The notes below the pieces were generated by a model, which searched no databases, was not told where the DNA came from, and was given only the letters and a program-made list of their open reading frames with translations. Shown one piece after another: positions 162-5,602 of a DNA stretch of 5,625 nucleotides (positions within the stretch are counted from its first letter, which is position 1; each line of letters begins with the position of its first letter). The translations under genes were made by a program, and so were the position numbers. Origin of the DNA: Candidatus Nanopusillus sp. (GTDB lineage: Archaea; Nanobdellota; Nanobdellia; Nanobdellales; Nanobdellaceae); NCBI GenBank assembly GCA_028276785.1, contig JAPYVP010000027.1:1-5625 (forward strand), read 5' to 3'.

Positions 162-1370
162 ATGAACAAGAAGATATTATTAATTTTATTATCTTTTCTT
201 ATATTTCTATTAAGCAGAAATATTTTCTCTTATCAAATTTATTATTATAATCAAAGTTATATTCCAAATATATCAATTACTCCATATTTATATAATGGAG
301 AATTTTTAGCTGGACAGAATATTACAGGATATGTTTTGGTGCAAAATAATGACCCATATTATTATCCACAAATATTTTTGGGAATAATGTTAGTTAATGA
401 AAATTCATCATTTGGTACTCAAGTATTATTTGCTGAATTAAATATGATATCAAATTTATTTCCATATGAAAATTATACAGTAAATTTTTCATACCAAATT
501 CCAGAAAACATATCTTCAGGAAATTATGAATTATTATTTTATTTATATACTGCTACAAAACATATAATAGGTAATCCGAACAACTTTTCTACACCAATAT
601 ATGAAAATATTTACATAAGTAATCCAAATATTGGTAATTATCCATGGATTGCTATTGTGAGAAATCAGACAGAATTAACAAATAATAATGGAATATTAAA
701 TTTAAACTTGAGTTTATATTCATTATATAATACAAATGCAACAATAAATATTAAACTTGCCGAGTGGGATGCTCTATTATATGGAGCAATATATAATAAT
801 TCTTTTAATGTAGAAGTAAATGATGGGTATAATTATATTTACATAGAAAATATTAATGTATCAAATCTATATCCTGGAATATATTATATTTTAATTGAAT
901 TATATTCTGATAATTTATTACAAGATCTATATATTATACCTTATTATGTTTACGGAAAATCATTATCTTTTAATGGAATATACTTAAATAATAATGGAAC
1001 TTTATTGGTAATTTTATCTACATATCCAAATGATAACAATAATCATAATTTATATAATATTGGACTGACAATATATTCTGATAATCAAAATTTTCAAGAT
1101 TCAATTAATATAGGTAATTTATCATATAATTCCACCGAATATATTTATATTTATGATGATGTTCCAATGATAAATGGAGAAGATTTATGTTTTAACTTAA
1201 CATATCAAAAAGAAATAAATGGACTAACTTATCTTTCAAATATATGTTATACATATTATTTAACAAATCAAACAACAAGTACCTCTTCCAATTATAATAC
1301 AGAAATAAAAGTTTTGATAGTTTTAGTAATAGTTGCTGGTTTAGTTATTTATTTTCTTATCAAAAAATAA
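162..1370 (+). CDS. Secreted, C-terminally membrane-anchored, putatively heavily N-glycosylated surface protein of unknown family. It probably has 2-3 Ig-like/CARDB-like beta-sandwich modules.
   Basis: 402-aa ORF. It has an N-terminal signal peptide (MNKKILLILLSFLIFLLSRNIFS). The C-terminus has a Ser/Thr linker (NQTTSTSS), a TM helix (IKVLIVLVIVAGLVIYFLI) and a KK tail. I hand-counted 18 N-X-S/T sequons. A 'G-x-Y-x-L-x-x-x-LY' strand motif recurs (GNYELLFYLY, PGIYYILIELYSDN, LYNIGLTIYSDN), suggesting repeated beta-sandwich modules. Confidence 0.85.
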   Translation: MNKKILLILLSFLIFLLSRNIFSYQIYYYNQSYIPNISITPYLYNGEFLAGQNITGYVLVQNNDPYYYPQIFLGIMLVNENSSFGTQVLFAELNMISNLFPYENYTVNFSYQIPENISSGNYELLFYLYTATKHIIGNPNNFSTPIYENIYISNPNIGNYPWIAIVRNQTELTNNNGILNLNLSLYSLYNTNATINIKLAEWDALLYGAIYNNSFNVEVNDGYNYIYIENINVSNLYPGIYYILIELYSDNLLQDLYIIPYYVYGKSLSFNGIYLNNNGTLLVILSTYPNDNNNHNLYNIGLTIYSDNQNFQDSINIGNLSYNSTEYIYIYDDVPMINGEDLCFNLTYQKEINGLTYLSNICYTYYLTNQTTSTSSNYNTEIKVLIVLVIVAGLVIYFLIKK

Positions 1371-1411: not shown

Positions 1412-2041
1412 ATGTTTGATAGGAACAAAAATAAAAGAATTATACTAAGCAAACTATATAGATTTTTAATTATATTTATAATTGCTTTTGCTTATTTATC
1501 TTCTATATATTCTTTATATTCTTTTAGTCCTTCTACTGTACTATGTTCTACAGTTAATAGAGTCTCTACTACTGTCACAAAAACCGTTACATCTAAAGTT
1601 ACTGCTACATATACATCTACAGTTACTAATACAGTTTATACAACAGTTACTAATACAGTATATAATACAGTAACTAGGACAGCAACAGTAACTAATACAG
1701 TATATAATACAGCAACAAACACAGTATATATAATAAATACTATAACGCAAACTGCATATGGTATATCGACTACAACTAGTACATTAACTACTACCTTAAC
1801 TTCAACTGTTTTGGTAACAGCTACAATCACAATAACTACTACATCAGTCGTTTCTACTACAGTTACTACGACAACAACTTCTACAAGTACTGTGTGGAGT
1901 ACGGTATATACAACAACTACTAATACTGTAACAACTACTAGTACAGTTACGACCACATCAACTGTCTATACGACTACAACATCTACTTTAACTTCAACTG
2001 TTACGGCCAAGCAGACTTATTATACTTTAATACAATCATAA
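1412..2041 (+). CDS. Threonine-array protein A. It has an N-terminal signal/anchor helix followed by about 170 aa of Thr/Val/Ser/Tyr/Asn low-complexity T-x-T repeats, and no C-terminal anchor.
   Basis: 209-aa ORF. A basic N-terminus (MFDRNKNKR) precedes a 21-aa hydrophobic segment (RFLIIFIIAFAYLSSIYSLYS). Residues 41-209 contain 77 Thr of 169 (hand count), no Pro, no Asp/Glu and a single Cys (C45). The gene is paralogous at both DNA and protein level to the next gene, which supports it being real rather than a low-complexity artefact. Confidence 0.75.
   Translation: MFDRNKNKRIILSKLYRFLIIFIIAFAYLSSIYSLYSFSPSTVLCSTVNRVSTTVTKTVTSKVTATYTSTVTNTVYTTVTNTVYNTVTRTATVTNTVYNTATNTVYIINTITQTAYGISTTTSTLTTTLTSTVLVTATITITTTSVVSTTVTTTTTSTSTVWSTVYTTTTNTVTTTSTVTTTSTVYTTTTSTLTSTVTAKQTYYTLIQS
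1571..1706 (+). repeat. Copy 1 of a near-identical DNA block shared with 2244..2355
   Basis: Manual alignment: 1571-1635 vs 2244-2308 is 63/65 identical, and 1660-1706 vs 2309-2355 is 44/47 identical. Copy 1 carries an extra 24 nt (1636-1659), which is exactly one 8-codon repeat unit. Confidence 0.9.
1622..1729 (+). repeat. In-frame degenerate 24-bp (8-codon) tandem repeat encoding (V/A)TNTVYxx units
   Basis: Units read ACAGTTACTAATACAGTTTATACA / ACAGTTACTAATACAGTATATAAT / ... and encode VTNTVYTT-VTNTVYNT-VTRTAT-VTNTVYNT-ATNTVYII. That is four full units and one 6-codon variant. Confidence 0.8.
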
Positions 2042-2042
2042 G

Positions 2043-3131
2043 ATGAATATTAATACTAAGATAAAAAAGATTTTAAAATATATGTTAATTTTATTATTAT
2101 TTATAAAAATATTTAATGTTGCTTATAGCAACACTTGTATTACTTATAGTGGTTTAGTCGCTATATGCGTATTTTGTAATTTGGGAGGTGAATGTAGAGG
2201 CTATTGTACATATACAGTAATTGATACAGTCTATAATACTGTTACTGTCACAAAAACCGTTACATCTACAGTTACTGCTACATATACATCTGCAGTTACT
2301 AATACAGTATATAATACAGTAACTAGGACAGCAACAGTCACTAACACAGTCTATACTACAGTTACATCAACAGTAACAAGTACAACTACATCTACTATTT
2401 ATACATCAACATCAACAGTATATACAACGGCAACTACTATCCAAACAGTTACTTCAACAGTTTCTACATCAACAGTTACTTCAACAGTGACTTCTACATC
2501 AACGTTAACTAGCACTCAAACATATACTACAACAGTTACAGGTACAACTACATCAACAATTACTAGTACAGTAACAAATACTCAATATACAACATCAACA
2601 GCTACAACTACTTCCACTATTACAAATTATGTAACTACTACGACAACTACTACTCTTATATATAATTCTATCTTATATTTAAATGGCATTTTAAGTATCA
2701 ATTCTATTAATCAAACTTTCTATAGATCAATTAGCTTTCCTGTGCAGTCTGGAAATACAATATTTTATTTAAATATAACAAATTCTGGTAATGCAACAAT
2801 TAACAATATAACCTTATCTTTTTCAGTTATTGGAAATAGTGTAATTTTATCATATAATAACTTACCTATAACAACTTTAAATAATATTACTATATCTTCT
2901 CCTTTACAACCAAATAACTCATTAATAATACCATTTAATATGCTTGTAATATCTCCAGGTTTAACAAATGTAGATATAAAGGTTTATGTAAATGGACAAT
3001 ATATAGGATATGGAAATTATCAATTTAATGTTGTACTGGGATCTTCTTCACCATCTTTGGTAGTTTCTGAAAATATAAATTATATGTTGGTATCTTTAGC
3101 GGGAATTTTAGGTCTGTTACTATTAATATAA
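2043..3131 (+). CDS. Threonine-array protein B. Domain order: signal peptide, 5-Cys cluster, about 150-aa T-x-T array, sequon-rich CARDB/Ig-like beta-sandwich domain, C-terminal TM anchor.
   Basis: 362-aa ORF whose ATG lies 1 nt after the stop of the previous gene (TAA-G-ATG). The signal peptide is MLILLLFIKIFNVAYS. Cys residues are at 32/42/45/51/55. Residues 56-205 contain 76 Thr of 150 (hand count). Residues ~224-333 (FPVQSGNTIFYLNITNSGNATINNITLSF...DIKVYVNGQYIGYGNYQFNV) resemble the CARDB/NEW3-type 'v-x-v-x-N-x-G-n-a-x-x-x-n-v-x-l' signature. The C-terminal hydrophobic segment is YMLVSLAGILGLLLLI. Confidence 0.85.
   Translation: MNINTKIKKILKYMLILLLFIKIFNVAYSNTCITYSGLVAICVFCNLGGECRGYCTYTVIDTVYNTVTVTKTVTSTVTATYTSAVTNTVYNTVTRTATVTNTVYTTVTSTVTSTTTSTIYTSTSTVYTTATTIQTVTSTVSTSTVTSTVTSTSTLTSTQTYTTTVTGTTTSTITSTVTNTQYTTSTATTTSTITNYVTTTTTTTLIYNSILYLNGILSINSINQTFYRSISFPVQSGNTIFYLNITNSGNATINNITLSFSVIGNSVILSYNNLPITTLNNITISSPLQPNNSLIIPFNMLVISPGLTNVDIKVYVNGQYIGYGNYQFNVVLGSSSPSLVVSENINYMLVSLAGILGLLLLI
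2244..2355 (+). repeat. Copy 2 of the near-identical DNA block shared with 1571..1706
   Basis: See copy 1. There are five substitutions in total. Three are synonymous third-position changes (GTA/GTC, AAT/AAC, GTA/GTC). Two are nonsynonymous (AAA Lys vs ACA Thr; ACA Thr vs GCA Ala). Confidence 0.9.
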
Positions 3132-3172: not shown

Positions 3173-4366
3173 ATGAATATGAGAAATATATTTGTATTAT
3201 TAATAATTATTGTAATAATTTTTGGAATAATACATTATTTGGGTTATCAAAATAGAACATATGGTAATGGAAATATATTAAAATTAGTAATATATAATCC
3301 AACAAACTGTACAGTTTTTTCACCATTTCAACAAGAAATATATATAAATAGTTCTATAATGAATGAATATAGAATAAATGAAAATGGATCAAATGTTTTC
3401 TTCTTTACAAATTTAGGTAATATTACAGGATCAATTTTATATTCTTGGTTTGCAGGATACTATAATAATTATTCTGTTTGGTGGGTAAGGTTACCAACTC
3501 CAATCTCTCCATATTCAAATATTACAATATACATGTATATAGGATCTGAAGGGGAAAATTATTACGAAGAATATTCTCCTTATGTTGGTATTTCATCTTA
3601 TGTATATAATAATTATAGTTGGGGACCTTTAAGTATTTATGATAATGGACAATTTGTATTTGATTTCTATGGTTGGTTCTATGATACAAAAGATAATTGG
3701 ATCTTAAATGTCGAAAATGGAAATTATTTCCCAACTCCAACTATTAATGGAATTGAAATGATAAATTATTCATTATCTCAAGGATCTTACATAGAACCTC
3801 CAAATGATGGAAATATTCCAAATATACCAATAATTATAGAGGAAGGATGGTATTATAATGGAGAAGCTGACGCAAATGTAATTTCAATGTATGGTGGAAA
3901 ATCGGTTACATATGCAGCAGGAGTAAATATGTTTGGAGGATATACACCAACATTATTAGATTCTATATTTGTACAATATGAATATTATAATTTACAACCC
4001 TCAATATATATTTCTTATGCTAACGAAGAAGCTCCCATACAATTATATGAAGGACCATTTATAAATAAAAATCAGTCATATGTTTTTTCATACTTTTTAG
4101 TTGACTTTTGCAATAATACATATATACAGGCCGGATATCTTGCGTTGAATAATACTCCGCCAATTTCTCTATTAGGAACCTTAGAAAATACCAACCAAAC
4201 TATAAAAATAGGAATTGATAGAAACATTTTATCAGGAGATTACTTTTCCATTAATTCTGGAAGTGGTTCCCAATCAACATCTTCACAATCTATATATTGG
4301 GTTGTTGGAAGAACATATCCACCAGATGGGATTATGCCAGAAGTTTATATAGAAAGTTTATCATAA
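3173..4366 (+). CDS. N-terminally anchored extracellular protein with a DUF2341-like segment, probably followed by a concanavalin/LamG-like beta-sandwich. Putative glycan-binding or surface-assembly protein.
   Basis: 397-aa ORF with a single N-terminal TM helix (NIFVLLIIIVIIFGIIHYLG). The segment NENGSNVFFFTNLGNITGSILYSWFAGYYNNYSVWWVRLPTPISPYSNITIYMYIGSEG matches my recollection of the DUF2341 pattern (dGsDirF...Lpyeie...a-vWVkvP-l-a-s-ttIymYyGn). I hand-counted 13 N-X-S/T sequons. The domain call rests on memory of the family, not a search. Confidence 0.8.
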   Translation: MNMRNIFVLLIIIVIIFGIIHYLGYQNRTYGNGNILKLVIYNPTNCTVFSPFQQEIYINSSIMNEYRINENGSNVFFFTNLGNITGSILYSWFAGYYNNYSVWWVRLPTPISPYSNITIYMYIGSEGENYYEEYSPYVGISSYVYNNYSWGPLSIYDNGQFVFDFYGWFYDTKDNWILNVENGNYFPTPTINGIEMINYSLSQGSYIEPPNDGNIPNIPIIIEEGWYYNGEADANVISMYGGKSVTYAAGVNMFGGYTPTLLDSIFVQYEYYNLQPSIYISYANEEAPIQLYEGPFINKNQSYVFSYFLVDFCNNTYIQAGYLALNNTPPISLLGTLENTNQTIKIGIDRNILSGDYFSINSGSGSQSTSSQSIYWVVGRTYPPDGIMPEVYIESLS

Positions 4367-4405: not shown

Positions 4406-5602
4406 ATGAAAAATTTATTTAAGATTATTGATATTTTAAAGAAAAACAAAATAATAAATAAATTATATGGGTTCATAAAAAAATATCCTTTTTATATAAT
4501 TTTGAGTATTTTATTATTAATTTATACTTATCAGACAGTTTCTGTATTTTATCCTATAAATTCATATATTTCAGATGAAGTATGGTATGCTCCATCTTCA
4601 TATAATATTATGACAAAAATATTTCATTTAAATATAAATCAAACTGTTCCATTCCCCTCTGGAAAAGATTTGACCAATTATTTTAATCTTGAACAACCAC
4701 CTTTAGCAAAATATATAATTGGTATTTTTATATATTTTTTAGGATATAATTATTGGGTTTGGAGAATTCCTAGCTGGATATTGGGAGATCTAATAATAAT
4801 TTTATCATTTTTAATAACTAGAAAAATTGTTAGTAATAATATATTTGGAAATATTGCAGGAATAATTACTTCAGTTTTGATTATTTCTGATCCAAATATA
4901 TGGGTAATGCATGGTATAGCTATGTTAGATATATATGTATCATTCTTTTCTTTATTATCATTGTATTATTTAATAAAAGATGATATAATAAAATCATCTA
5001 TATCTTTTGGATTAGCATTTTCTTCAAAATTTCCTGGAGCATTTTTAATATTTCCTCTTTTATATTATGTTAAAGGAATTAATATAAGTAGAATAAAAAG
5101 ATTTCTTTATGTAGTTATATTACCATTATTAATATATTTATCCTTAAACCTTCCATTAATTATATATTTTGGATTTTTTAGTTGGTTTAATCAAAGTTTT
5201 TTAGGTGCATTAGAATGGGATATTACATCTGGTCATATTGTAAATGCTCCAAATCAAATTTCTTCACCATGGCAATGGTTATTAAATATTCATCCATTTG
5301 ATTTAGGAACCTATTCTGGAAATAATCTTTATTTAAATAGTTTTCATGCATTAGCAAATAATTATATTATGATACTATGGCTAATTTTAACACCTTTAAT
5401 ATTTATATTAAAAGATAAAAAAGTTACAGTTTCCTATTTATATCCACTATCAATTTATTTAGGATTTTTCTTAATATATTTCTTAGGTAATACAACAATA
5501 TTTACATATTATGTTACAGATTTTATGCCAATGGTTTATATATATGTAGTTTCTTCTCTATTTTTATTGGGATTAAGATATTATAAAAATTTAGATCATT
5601 AA
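4406..5602 (+). CDS. Polytopic GT-C superfamily glycosyltransferase. It most resembles the protein O-mannosyltransferase family (GT39 / PMT, PMT_2-like) and presumably uses a polyprenyl(dolichyl)-phosphate-sugar donor.
   Basis: 398-aa ORF with about 10-12 hydrophobic segments by eye. A DE dyad (D57-E58, nt 4574-4579) sits in the first extracytoplasmic loop right after TM1 (SDEVWY vs PMT 'DEVHF'). EQPPLAKYIIG (nt 4691-4720 region) matches the PMT 'HPPLAK/HPPLGK' motif. WRIPSWILG matches 'Rl-sal-G'. SSPWQWLL (nt 5261-5284) in a late loop matches the PMT 's-pw-W' motif. There is no WWDYG motif, so it is not an AglB/STT3 oligosaccharyltransferase. Confidence 0.85.
   Translation: MKNLFKIIDILKKNKIINKLYGFIKKYPFYIILSILLLIYTYQTVSVFYPINSYISDEVWYAPSSYNIMTKIFHLNINQTVPFPSGKDLTNYFNLEQPPLAKYIIGIFIYFLGYNYWVWRIPSWILGDLIIILSFLITRKIVSNNIFGNIAGIITSVLIISDPNIWVMHGIAMLDIYVSFFSLLSLYYLIKDDIIKSSISFGLAFSSKFPGAFLIFPLLYYVKGINISRIKRFLYVVILPLLIYLSLNLPLIIYFGFFSWFNQSFLGALEWDITSGHIVNAPNQISSPWQWLLNIHPFDLGTYSGNNLYLNSFHALANNYIMILWLILTPLIFILKDKKVTVSYLYPLSIYLGFFLIYFLGNTTIFTYYVTDFMPMVYIYVVSSLFLLGLRYYKNLDH

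Follow-up and report, generated by a model that had tools for sequence, protein, structure and literature searches.

The 5,625-nt stretch of DNA analysed here, hereafter the window, comes from the hot-spring nanoarchaeon Candidatus Nanopusillus; its G+C content is 22% and it carries five co-directional genes separated by gaps of 1-41 nt. Two of its open reading frames (ORFs), ORF2 and ORF3, are secreted paralogues, probably translationally coupled, and act as partners; each contains a long array in which Thr recurs at nearly every second position. Based on computational evidence throughout, we tentatively propose, with somewhat less than even confidence, that the two proteins form a parallel, disulfide-stapled and length-matched two-chain surface stalk, a structure distinct both from floppy mucin linkers and from known folds. 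The underlying observation is real and unusual, and would belong to the kind of the repeat-based surface stalk.

The composition reported in a first-pass annotation of the letters alone was reproduced. Residues 41-209 of ORF2 (nt 1532-2038) are 45.6% Thr, 14.8% Val and 10.7% Ser, with no Pro, a single Gly and no Asp or Glu, while residues 56-205 of ORF3 (nt 2208-2657) are 50.7% Thr, with no Pro, one Gly, one Asp and no Glu, and the alternating run that the annotation quoted is present in the sequence. Pooled over the family, the arrays contain 48.6% Thr, ~12% Ser, 0.6% Gly, 1.0% Asp plus Glu and 0.9% Lys plus Arg. With Pro at 0% in the window and 0.3% family-wide, the arrays are indeed not classical Pro/Ser/Thr mucin linkers, yet the accompanying premise that glycosylated stalks are Pro-rich was too strong, as Pro-free Ser-x stalks exist in bacteria, namely in the serine-rich repeat proteins (SRRPs) and the Ser-Asp repeat (Sdr) proteins.

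T-x-T motifs in which x is not Thr number 38 in ORF2 and 46 in ORF3, compared to 19 +/- 3.7 in shuffled sequences (z = 5.1 and 7.3), counts that were reached by 0 of 5000 shuffles, and the autocorrelation of Thr is ~0.30-0.37 at every even lag and ~0.14 at odd lags. The alternation, which had been described as strict, is nearly so but not exact: a two-state phase model places all 169 ORF2 residues in one phase, whereas ORF3 contains two phase slips that divide it into blocks of 64, 21 and 65 residues. Within the family a single phase continues uninterrupted for up to 362 aa. Thr fills 73-88% of the on-phase sites of the window arrays, where it is replaced chiefly by Tyr, and ~20% of the off-phase sites; the family-wide values are 78% Thr and 10% Tyr on phase, and Val 22%, Ser 22%, Thr 20%, Asn 7%, Ile 7% and Ala 5% off phase. 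An 8-residue period, the VTNTVYxx octad of the first-pass annotation, exists in the form of local 24-nt repeats but does not hold as a general period. Lag 8 is no stronger for Thr than the other even lags, Val peaks at lags 4, 8 and 12, and no repeat length above 4 aa is common to the homologous gene pairs of 23 lineages. The basic pattern is thus (T-x)n with a tendency to T-V-T-x rather than a conserved 8-residue repeat. The hydropathy of the window arrays, 0.50-0.52, exceeds the Uversky boundary of 0.42 and so places them on the ordered side; their mean Chou-Fasman beta propensity is 1.2. Family-wide, N-x-S/T sequons account for 17% of array Asn as opposed to the 42% expected from the off-phase composition, whereas they are frequent in ORF1, in ORF4 and in the ORF3 sandwich, where they cover 33% of Asn; their depletion in the arrays would fit a sterically constrained shaft.

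Judging by its sequence, ORF2 is a paralogue of ORF3 that ends where the beta-sandwich of ORF3 begins (Table 1). The N-terminal segment of ORF2 and the signal peptide of ORF3 are paralogous, and the ORF2 segment closes with an (A/I)-Y-(S/A/G)-like motif, as seen in paired N-termini from 30 loci, and the 'TLIQS' of its C-terminal tail aligns with the 'TLIYNS' found at the start of the sandwich. The stop codon of ORF2 is separated from the start of ORF3 by 1 nt in the window and by 1-5 nt in relatives. A single fused ORF2-ORF3 gene was ruled out, as each ORF has a signal segment of its own. The ORF3 sandwich was modelled by AlphaFold2 from a 12-sequence alignment with a predicted local distance difference test score (pLDDT) of 74-88, and a Foldseek search with it returned 84 PDB matches at E < 1e-3, including the Pyrococcus CARDB structure 3idu (TM-score 0.62-0.65) and complement MG domains. 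The model thus shows residues 206-330 as the seven- to nine-stranded sandwich typical of the immunoglobulin (Ig)-like/CARDB-like fold, with no match in Pfam. The Cys-rich stub that precedes the array is the most variable part of ORF3, with a mean pairwise identity of 30% compared to 82% for the sandwich.

The arrays of the two genes match in length. We compared 24 ORF2/ORF3 pairs, or 23 without a near-duplicate, taken from an isolate genome, a single-cell/metagenome genome and many metagenome contigs. Array lengths range from 99 to 379 aa and are correlated between ORF2 and ORF3 with r = 0.977 over the 24 pairs; the difference between partners averages 1 aa with a standard deviation of 12, whereas the standard deviation of the lengths themselves is 55. 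With the Ig-like domain tree as the phylogeny, independent contrasts gave r = 0.98 (Spearman 0.84, p = 1e-6). When the arrays are measured from fixed points, the distance from the last Cys of ORF2 to its C-terminus exceeds that from the last Cys of ORF3 to the sandwich by 11-19 aa (median 14) in 21 of 23 pairs, although these Cys-anchored lengths span 106-360 aa, a 3.4-fold range. Relatives may differ by joint two-fold shifts in both genes, as between N. acidilobi (200/185 aa) and locus L034 (360/346) or between L035 (106/91) and L042 (221/205).

Gene conversion between the neighbouring paralogues is evident. Collinear array blocks of 120-240 nt are 78-97% identical within a genome, for example 134 nt at 97% in L042 and 179 nt at 94% in L056, and shared blocks are usually more alike within a genome than between genomes. 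The likeness between the ORF2 and ORF3 blocks of the window listed in Table 1 appears to be a trace of such conversion or of common descent; the shared block differs by one octad between the two genes, and still their totals are matched. The arrays of locus L006 are 179 and 179 aa long with only 70% identity over 81 nt, that is, with no detectable conversion, and those of L034 are 360 and 346 aa long with an identity of 72.6%, close to the background level between arrays in general. Since matching persists where no conversion tract can be detected, equal array length is, on indirect evidence, probably under selection.

A second covariation concerns cysteines. All extracellular Cys residues of both proteins sit just before the arrays, 1-3 of them in ORF2 and 3-7 in ORF3. 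The counts in ORF2/ORF3 are 1/5 in 16 pairs, 1/3 in 6, 2/4 in 3, 1/7, 3/5 and 2/6 in one pair each, and 2/3 in two pairs, which belong exclusively to the L006/L007 lineage, so that 28 of the 30 sequence pairs have counts of equal parity (Fisher p = 0.0012 on deduplicated lineages). Within one protein the count shifts by two (5 to 3, 5 to 7 or 1 to 3), and a change of parity occurs jointly in both proteins, giving 2/6 in Nst1 and 2/4 in the L014/L038 clade. This pattern is suggestive, being the one expected if intrachain disulfides change in pairs and one further disulfide links the chains; Cys45, the only Cys of ORF2, would be the candidate inter-chain partner of the odd fifth Cys of ORF3. An inter-chain disulfide, if right, would bring the N-terminal ends of the arrays together and make the chains parallel, in agreement with the collinear paralogy and with an ORF2 tail that ends at the ORF3 sandwich.

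The Thr pattern is maintained by purifying selection at the protein level. Comparing the last 80 ORF2 codons of the window with those of N. acidilobi, Thr is kept at 35 of 41 positions, in 13 of them with a different codon, whereas non-Thr positions are identical at 25 of 39; it is this retention of Thr through synonymous codon change that points to selection on the protein. In addition, the arrays are nearly devoid of Lys, Phe, Leu, Glu and Asp, residues with AT-rich codons that abound in the neighbouring genes. Drift is seen at the x positions: in distant lineages those of the N-terminal halves are near the level of a phase-preserving shuffle, while those of the C-terminal blocks reach 0.28-0.78 compared to ~0.2 for that shuffle. 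For comparison, identity of the Ig-like domain is 78-91% among the Nanopusillus/Nanobsidianus lineages and 50% in the divergent L006. The first-pass annotation had held that conservation of composition alone, with the periodicity lost, would refute an ordered array; what we find lies between, as the sequence does drift, whereas periodicity and phase are retained. Its suggestion of an ordered rather than mucin-like array likewise gains indirect support from the covariation of length and Cys, although the solenoid, one of the forms it offered, is not supported, and the comparisons taken together support selection on something more precise than a floppy spacer. In one pair of loci, L019 and L034, flanking genes are 97% identical in DNA and the arrays ~72%, with a two-fold difference in length, indicating that the arrays evolve much faster than their surroundings.

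The last gene of the window, ORF5, encodes a polytopic glycosyltransferase of the GT39/PMT type. It scores above the cut-offs of two Pfam families of dolichyl-phosphate-mannose protein mannosyltransferases (PMTs), with 31.6 bits for PMT_2 (cut-off 26.1) and 24.5 bits for PMT (cut-off 22.7), and reaches only 44.8 of the 800 bits of the NCBIfam Pmt equivalog; a PDB search found no detectable sequence match to solved PMTs. The loop-1 DE motif, a hallmark of the PMT family (PMC8698208), is found at residues 57-58 (nt 4574-4579), with D57 and E58 invariant in 14 homologues and present in 25 of 25. The conserved loop-1 His of the HPPLxK motif is absent from the window protein, which reads 'EQPPLAKY' with Gln97 (CAA, nt 4694-4696), whereas all other homologues examined, from Nanopusillus to Pyrobaculum, have His. 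Gln97 is common to the 80-member cluster P0001 and is therefore not a sequencing error. The closest homologues of ORF5 are those of Candidatus Nanopusillus (85-92% identity), followed by a group from the Sulfolobales (47-51%). Surface glycosylation is prominent in N. acidilobi (PMC4935971), yeast Pmt4 recognises S/T-X-S/T (PMC12586580), and the enzymes of archaeal protein O-glycosylation are still unidentified (PMC6098224). The presence of GT39 in the same operon keeps dense O-glycosylation of the arrays in play; we consider such modification plausible, at about an even chance, and compatible with a paired as well as with an unpaired shaft.

In the stalk that we propose, the 1-nt gene spacing would lead to coupled and equimolar synthesis of ORF2 and ORF3, and the chains would run parallel, their N-terminal ends stapled by an inter-chain disulfide within a hypervariable Cys knot. 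This knot may be the distal, host-facing tip, a role we assign to it because no other part of ORF3 varies as much. At the opposite end, the tail of ORF2 would dock on the ORF3 sandwich to form a base anchored by the ORF3 transmembrane helix. In between, the uncharged, beta-branched pattern of period 2 would keep the chains extended and strand-like; each would show Thr/Tyr on one face and Val/Ser/Asn on the other, and the two would probably pair in register. The Thr face may be O-glycosylated by the GT39 enzyme of the operon while the chains are leaving the membrane. Such a stalk could hold its variable tip tens of nanometres off the cell, plausibly for host contact; full extension at ~0.33 nm per residue would give ~50 nm in the window and 30-120 nm across the family, the length being tuned by gain and loss of repeats in both genes together. 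An antiparallel two-chain model, drawn from anchors at opposite ends, was rejected, as the Cys residues of both proteins are N-terminal and the two paralogues align collinearly. The ORF2 tail also covaries with the first strand of ORF3, but this follows clades and was not counted as independent evidence.

Several points weigh against this stalk. AlphaFold2 gave a pLDDT of 22-33 over both arrays, using the 12-sequence alignment for ORF3 and ORF2 alone, and no earlier case of a long parallel beta ribbon made of two strands is known to us. The length matching could partly stem from gene conversion between the adjacent paralogues, and array lengths come mostly from short-read assemblies, which often break in repeats; many contigs (L002, L003, L024, L033, L039 and others) start or stop inside arrays. 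Two pairs lie outside the common length relation, L028 at -32 aa, with an odd VVVRTVVVVRTV segment that may be misassembled, and L029 at -28 aa, with an extra Cys in a Pro-rich insert. The parity argument rests on only two independent coordinated switches, those of Nst1 and of the L014/L038 clade, and the rule does not hold in L006 (2/3), the most divergent of the lineages. Should the N-terminus of ORF2 be an uncleaved anchor, a different topology would be required for parallel chains. With regard to glycosylation, the equivalent of the His replaced by Gln97 in the window, His159, is essential in the Pmt of Streptomyces coelicolor (PMC8698208), and the GT39 homologues of the Sulfolobales and Pyrobaculum have no Thr arrays alongside. 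Lectin labelling, which is ambiguous as to glycosylation and in which N. acidilobi bound wheat germ agglutinin and concanavalin A labelled only the host (PMC4935971), argues against exposed alpha-mannose on the symbiont. Finally, tryptic proteomics detected none of the five N. acidilobi orthologues (PMC4935971 Supplementary Data 1), a result to be expected for the arrays, which are free of Lys and Arg.

The alternative that survives best, though we regard it as unlikely, is that the arrays are two independent, heavily O-glycosylated extended spacers of the mucin or SRRP/Sdr-like sort, unpaired, their equal length being a by-product of recurrent gene conversion and of both chains having to span roughly the same surface layer. 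Much of the drift described above would follow naturally from it: indels are frequent, the x positions of the N-terminal halves fall to the shuffle background, arrays are ~72% identical where their flanks are 97% identical, and conversion tracts reach 97% identity. The low pLDDT of the arrays and the GT39/PMT gene in the operon fit as well, and there are precedents in SRR2 stalks, which vary in length and lie in glycosylation islands (PMC7661464), and in Ser-Asp repeats, which form extended disordered stalks (PMC10367597). Nevertheless, partners that agree to within a few residues over 106-360 aa are held far more closely than a flexible spacer would require, and L006 and L034 are matched without recent conversion. 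Unpaired spacers would also leave the Cys-parity covariation and the conserved ORF2 tail unexplained, would sit oddly with an order-promoting composition (Val, Ile and Tyr with no Pro and no charge), and would give a cleaved ORF2 neither an anchor nor a functional domain of its own.

Less probable again, and in our view doubtful, is the fibre or sheet suggested by the first-pass annotation, in which the arrays would be mostly unglycosylated and many ORF2/ORF3 chains would stack on the cell surface, parallel and in register, into a cross-beta structure or sheet such as a functional amyloid or Thr-ladder fibre. The period-2 beta-branched pattern with no Pro and almost no Gly or charge, the beta propensity of 1.2 and the depletion of N-glycosylation sequons are what such a fibre calls for, and parallel in-register stacking favours similar chains of equal length. 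(Val-Thr)n peptides are reportedly classic self-assembling beta-sheet models, as described by Janek and co-workers in 1999. Known amyloids, however, are not chain-long single strands, and the arrays offer no turn positions and no conserved repeat length; AlphaFold2 yielded no beta assembly, the x positions drift quickly, the PMT-type enzyme of the operon suggests modified Thr, and each complex would still be tethered by the ORF3 transmembrane helix.

The Thr-faced beta-solenoid also suggested by the first-pass annotation, in which each array would fold on its own as in insect antifreeze and ice-nucleation proteins, now appears very improbable. T-x-T motifs are abundant and the local 8-residue repeat does carry periodic Asn and Tyr, but a coil of 8 residues is too short, and a coil-length period (~12-16 aa or more) is not common to the 23 lineages; Tandem Repeats Finder (TRF) detected only 12- and 24-nt periods, and these only locally. 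Turn or stapling residues in each coil (Gly, Pro or Cys) are likewise lacking, the arrays having one Gly and no Pro and the Cys residues lying only before them. Moreover, Thr occupies about half of all positions instead of one face per coil, a single alternation phase can extend over as many as 362 aa, and length changes freely. Single-chain AlphaFold2 models showed the sandwich and no structure, solenoid or other, in the arrays; their pLDDT of 22-33 speaks against a solenoid or any other self-contained fold, with a weight that is limited by the shallow alignment. Least credible of all is that the arrays are neutral low-complexity (ACN GTN)n expansions of an AT-rich genome with no specific structural role, for although tandem 12- and 24-nt repeats, hypervariable length and the breaking of assemblies at arrays would suit it, Thr is retained through synonymous codon turnover, the AT-rich codons of Lys, Phe, Leu, Glu and Asp are excluded though common next door, length and Cys parity covary between the genes, and the C-terminal blocks and ORF2 tail are conserved.

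Among known systems, the nearest analogues of the proposed two-chain stalk are the bacterial SRRP (Fap1, GspB, PsrP, Srr1/2) and Sdr stalks, by functional analogy and not homology. They share long Pro-poor arrays with a hydroxy residue at every second position, strain-variable array length, an extended stalk that holds a binding region off the cell (PMC7661464, PMC3794999, PMC10367597) and a glycosyltransferase gene beside the substrate gene. They differ in having Ser, whereas here it is Thr that alternates with Val, Ser, Thr, Asn, Ile or Tyr in an uncharged array, so that the Ser-x dipeptide repeats characteristic of SRRPs are absent. The nanoarchaeal system lacks LPxTG, SecA2/Y2 and GtfA/B in the window and in syntenic loci, its candidate enzyme is a membrane GT-C/PMT protein acting outside the membrane, and its array is distal to the folded domain and not between wall and binding region. 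Two length-matched chains with covarying Cys have not been described for SRRPs.

Eukaryotic and actinobacterial PMT substrates resemble the arrays in being S/T-rich secreted segments, the Pmt4 motif S/T-X-S/T being repeated throughout the arrays; with known PMTs, ORF5 shares the two Pfam matches above cut-off and the loop-1 DE motif, and it differs in being short (398 aa), in lacking the MIR domain and in the H97Q allele of the window. In fungal adhesins such as Als and Flo, beta-branched, Thr-rich and heavily O-mannosylated stalks with amyloid-prone segments are found, but these are single-chain, contain Pro and charged residues, and have no sequence or domain relationship to the arrays. Archaeal surface-layer (S-layer) glycoproteins and the Ser/Thr linker of Sulfolobales SlaB also have an extracellular Thr-rich stretch near a membrane anchor, presumed or shown to be O-glycosylated (PMC6098224, PMC6911244); those stretches, however, are short clusters without strict alternation directly beside the anchor, as opposed to phased arrays of 99-379 aa in a matched pair with a folded domain before the ORF3 anchor. 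Thr-ladder beta-solenoids of insect antifreeze and bacterial ice-nucleation proteins have T-x-T motifs and a beta-prone composition, whereas the arrays lack both a fixed coil repeat and turn residues and gave no confident fold prediction, and the organism is a thermoacidophile. Classical mucin Pro/Thr/Ser domains, antifreeze solenoids and S-layer Thr clusters thus each fail at least one of the defining features tested.

Nanoarchaeota live attached to other archaea. Cryo-electron tomography of related symbionts states the attachment proteins to be unknown (PMC11420986), and population genomics singled out 'hypothetical external' proteins as fast-evolving candidates (PMC6142677). ORF2 and ORF3 offer a testable candidate for host contact, as they are lineage-specific and surface-located, with a hypervariable tip and a shaft whose length differs two-fold between near relatives. 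For protein science, length matching to within a few residues over 100-360 aa of Pro-free, charge-free T-x repeats is unusual, and the shaft would be new in either case, as a paired-beta fibre or as a type of glycan-bearing rod. In its most specific form, which we consider rather unlikely, the stalk would be a hetero-oligomeric, parallel, in-register Thr/Tyr-ladder beta fibre whose length is set by repeat number, closed at one end by the disulfide knot and at the other by strand docking onto the Ig-like base. This would be an undescribed fibrous architecture and, if true, a length-tunable tether or probe for host cells. For archaeal glycobiology, the operon pairs a PMT-type GT39 with proteins that are half Thr, a candidate enzyme-substrate pair; if this GT39 decorates the fibre, it would be the first archaeal protein O-glycosyltransferase identified, and together with its substrate.

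Table 1. Features of the window (coordinates in nt of the 5,625-nt stretch)
Feature	Coordinates	Strand	Description
ORF1	162..1370	+	402 aa; N-terminal signal, N-x-S/T-rich ectodomain, C-terminal transmembrane helix; first gene of the cluster
ORF2	1412..2041	+	Signal/anchor, one Cys, Thr array, conserved tail
ORF2 N-terminal basic and hydrophobic signal/anchor segment, residues 1-40	1412..1531	+	Predicted helix 5-36
ORF2 Thr array, residues 41-193	1532..1990	+	Single phase; N-terminal half variable, C-terminal half conserved among orthologues
ORF2 Cys45, sole Cys of ORF2	1544..1546	+	Cys-parity covariation
ORF2 block shared with ORF3	1570..1726	+	DNA 78% identical to ORF3 2243-2375
Local 24-nt (8-aa, VTNTVYxx) tandem repeat in ORF2 array	1588..1730	+	~5 copies, 72-81% matches (TRF)
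ORF2 conserved 16-residue C-terminal tail TSTVTAKQTYYTLIQS and stop codon	1991..2041	+	Mean identity 79%
ORF3	2043..3131	+	Signal peptide, Cys-rich stub, Thr array, sandwich, spacer, transmembrane helix
ORF3 signal peptide, residues 1-29	2043..2129	+	Ends ...FNVAYS
ORF3 Cys-rich stub NTCITYSGLVAICVFCNLGGECRGYC, residues 30-55	2130..2207	+	Cys 32, 42, 45, 51, 55
ORF3 Thr array, residues 56-205	2208..2657	+	Three phase blocks; final ~70-residue block conserved in the family
Local 24-nt tandem repeat in ORF3 array	2261..2325	+	2.7 copies (TRF)
ORF3 Ig-like/CARDB-like beta-sandwich, residues 206-330	2658..3032	+	N-x-S/T-rich; family mean identity 82%
ORF3 short Ser-rich spacer and C-terminal transmembrane helix, residues 331-362, and stop codon	3033..3131	+	Predicted helix 343-361
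ORF4	3173..4366	+	397 aa; N-terminal transmembrane helix and conserved ectodomain; always between ORF3 and the GT39 gene
ORF5, GT39/PMT-type polytopic (GT-C) glycosyltransferase	4406..5602	+	398 aa; Pfam PMT, PMT_2

The five-gene order is kept in N. acidilobi 7A (CP010514), in Nanobsidianus stetteri Nst1 and in many hot-spring metagenome contigs, down to a lineage whose GT39 is only 64% identical. ORF2 and ORF3 are carried only by Nanopusillus/Nanobsidianus, and within 370 kb of related loci Thr arrays are confined to these two genes. In the published annotation of N. acidilobi, the five orthologues are Nps_02605, a mannosyltransferase (arCOG00561), and Nps_02610-02625, which are 'uncharacterized' (PMC4935971 Supplementary Data 1). 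An exact-sequence look-up found no record of ORF2 or ORF3 in the sequence collection. Homology searches with ORF2 returned no match, either by a word-indexed search or by a full phmmer scan of 1.84 billion representatives, in which composition-bias correction suppresses the array signal, and the literature library searched holds no paper connecting Nanopusillus with Thr-rich proteins. ORF1-4 have no family match in Pfam or NCBIfam, a RIFIN match (E = 0.43) being noise, and PDB sequence searches with ORF1, ORF4, ORF5 and a GT39 profile gave nothing useful. The Val/Cys/Leu-rich ORFs on the minus strand at 1541-1750 and 1636-1956 and on the plus strand at 1482-1673 were rejected as genes, being shadows of the (ACN GTN)n coding repeat.

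ORF1 and ORF4 are well conserved, sequon-rich surface proteins that always flank the ORF2/ORF3 pair, the synteny of ORF1 being seen in loci L006, L010, L011, L014 and L019; they may be part of the same surface complex. Two ORF3 alleles (L022 684-1610; L029 2485-3687) end in '...PESSSPSLVILVEG' and lack the C-terminal transmembrane helix; these are either secreted variants or artefacts of frameshift or assembly.

The Sulfolobales, whose GT39 proteins are the next closest to ORF5, are the clade that supplies the hosts of hot-spring nanoarchaea, and a Saccharolobus copy of GT39 lies among unrelated neighbours (L017, L018); a transfer of the GT39 gene between symbiont and host is possible. On an unrelated archaeal contig (45% G+C; L060 2949-5150, L061 2615-4324), the gene after a GT39 of 37% identity encodes a secreted protein that combines a pilin-like signal with Ig-like repeats and long tracts that are poly-Ser or S/T-rich. 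This second case of a GT39 beside an S/T-rich protein speaks for a link between the enzyme and the arrays; the gene upstream of that protein is no homologue of ORF4. In all loci related to the window, the GT39 gene is followed by a protein of 155-160 aa whose N-terminus, MKGISPIIATILLIVMTVAIAG, resembles that of archaeal type IV pilins and matches Pfam Pilin_N at E = 2e-4, under the cut-off. Its gene, which would fall just past the 3' end of the window, is found at 9163-9645 in L019, 1573-2055 in L001, 3508-3975 in L002 and 13746-14213 in L010.

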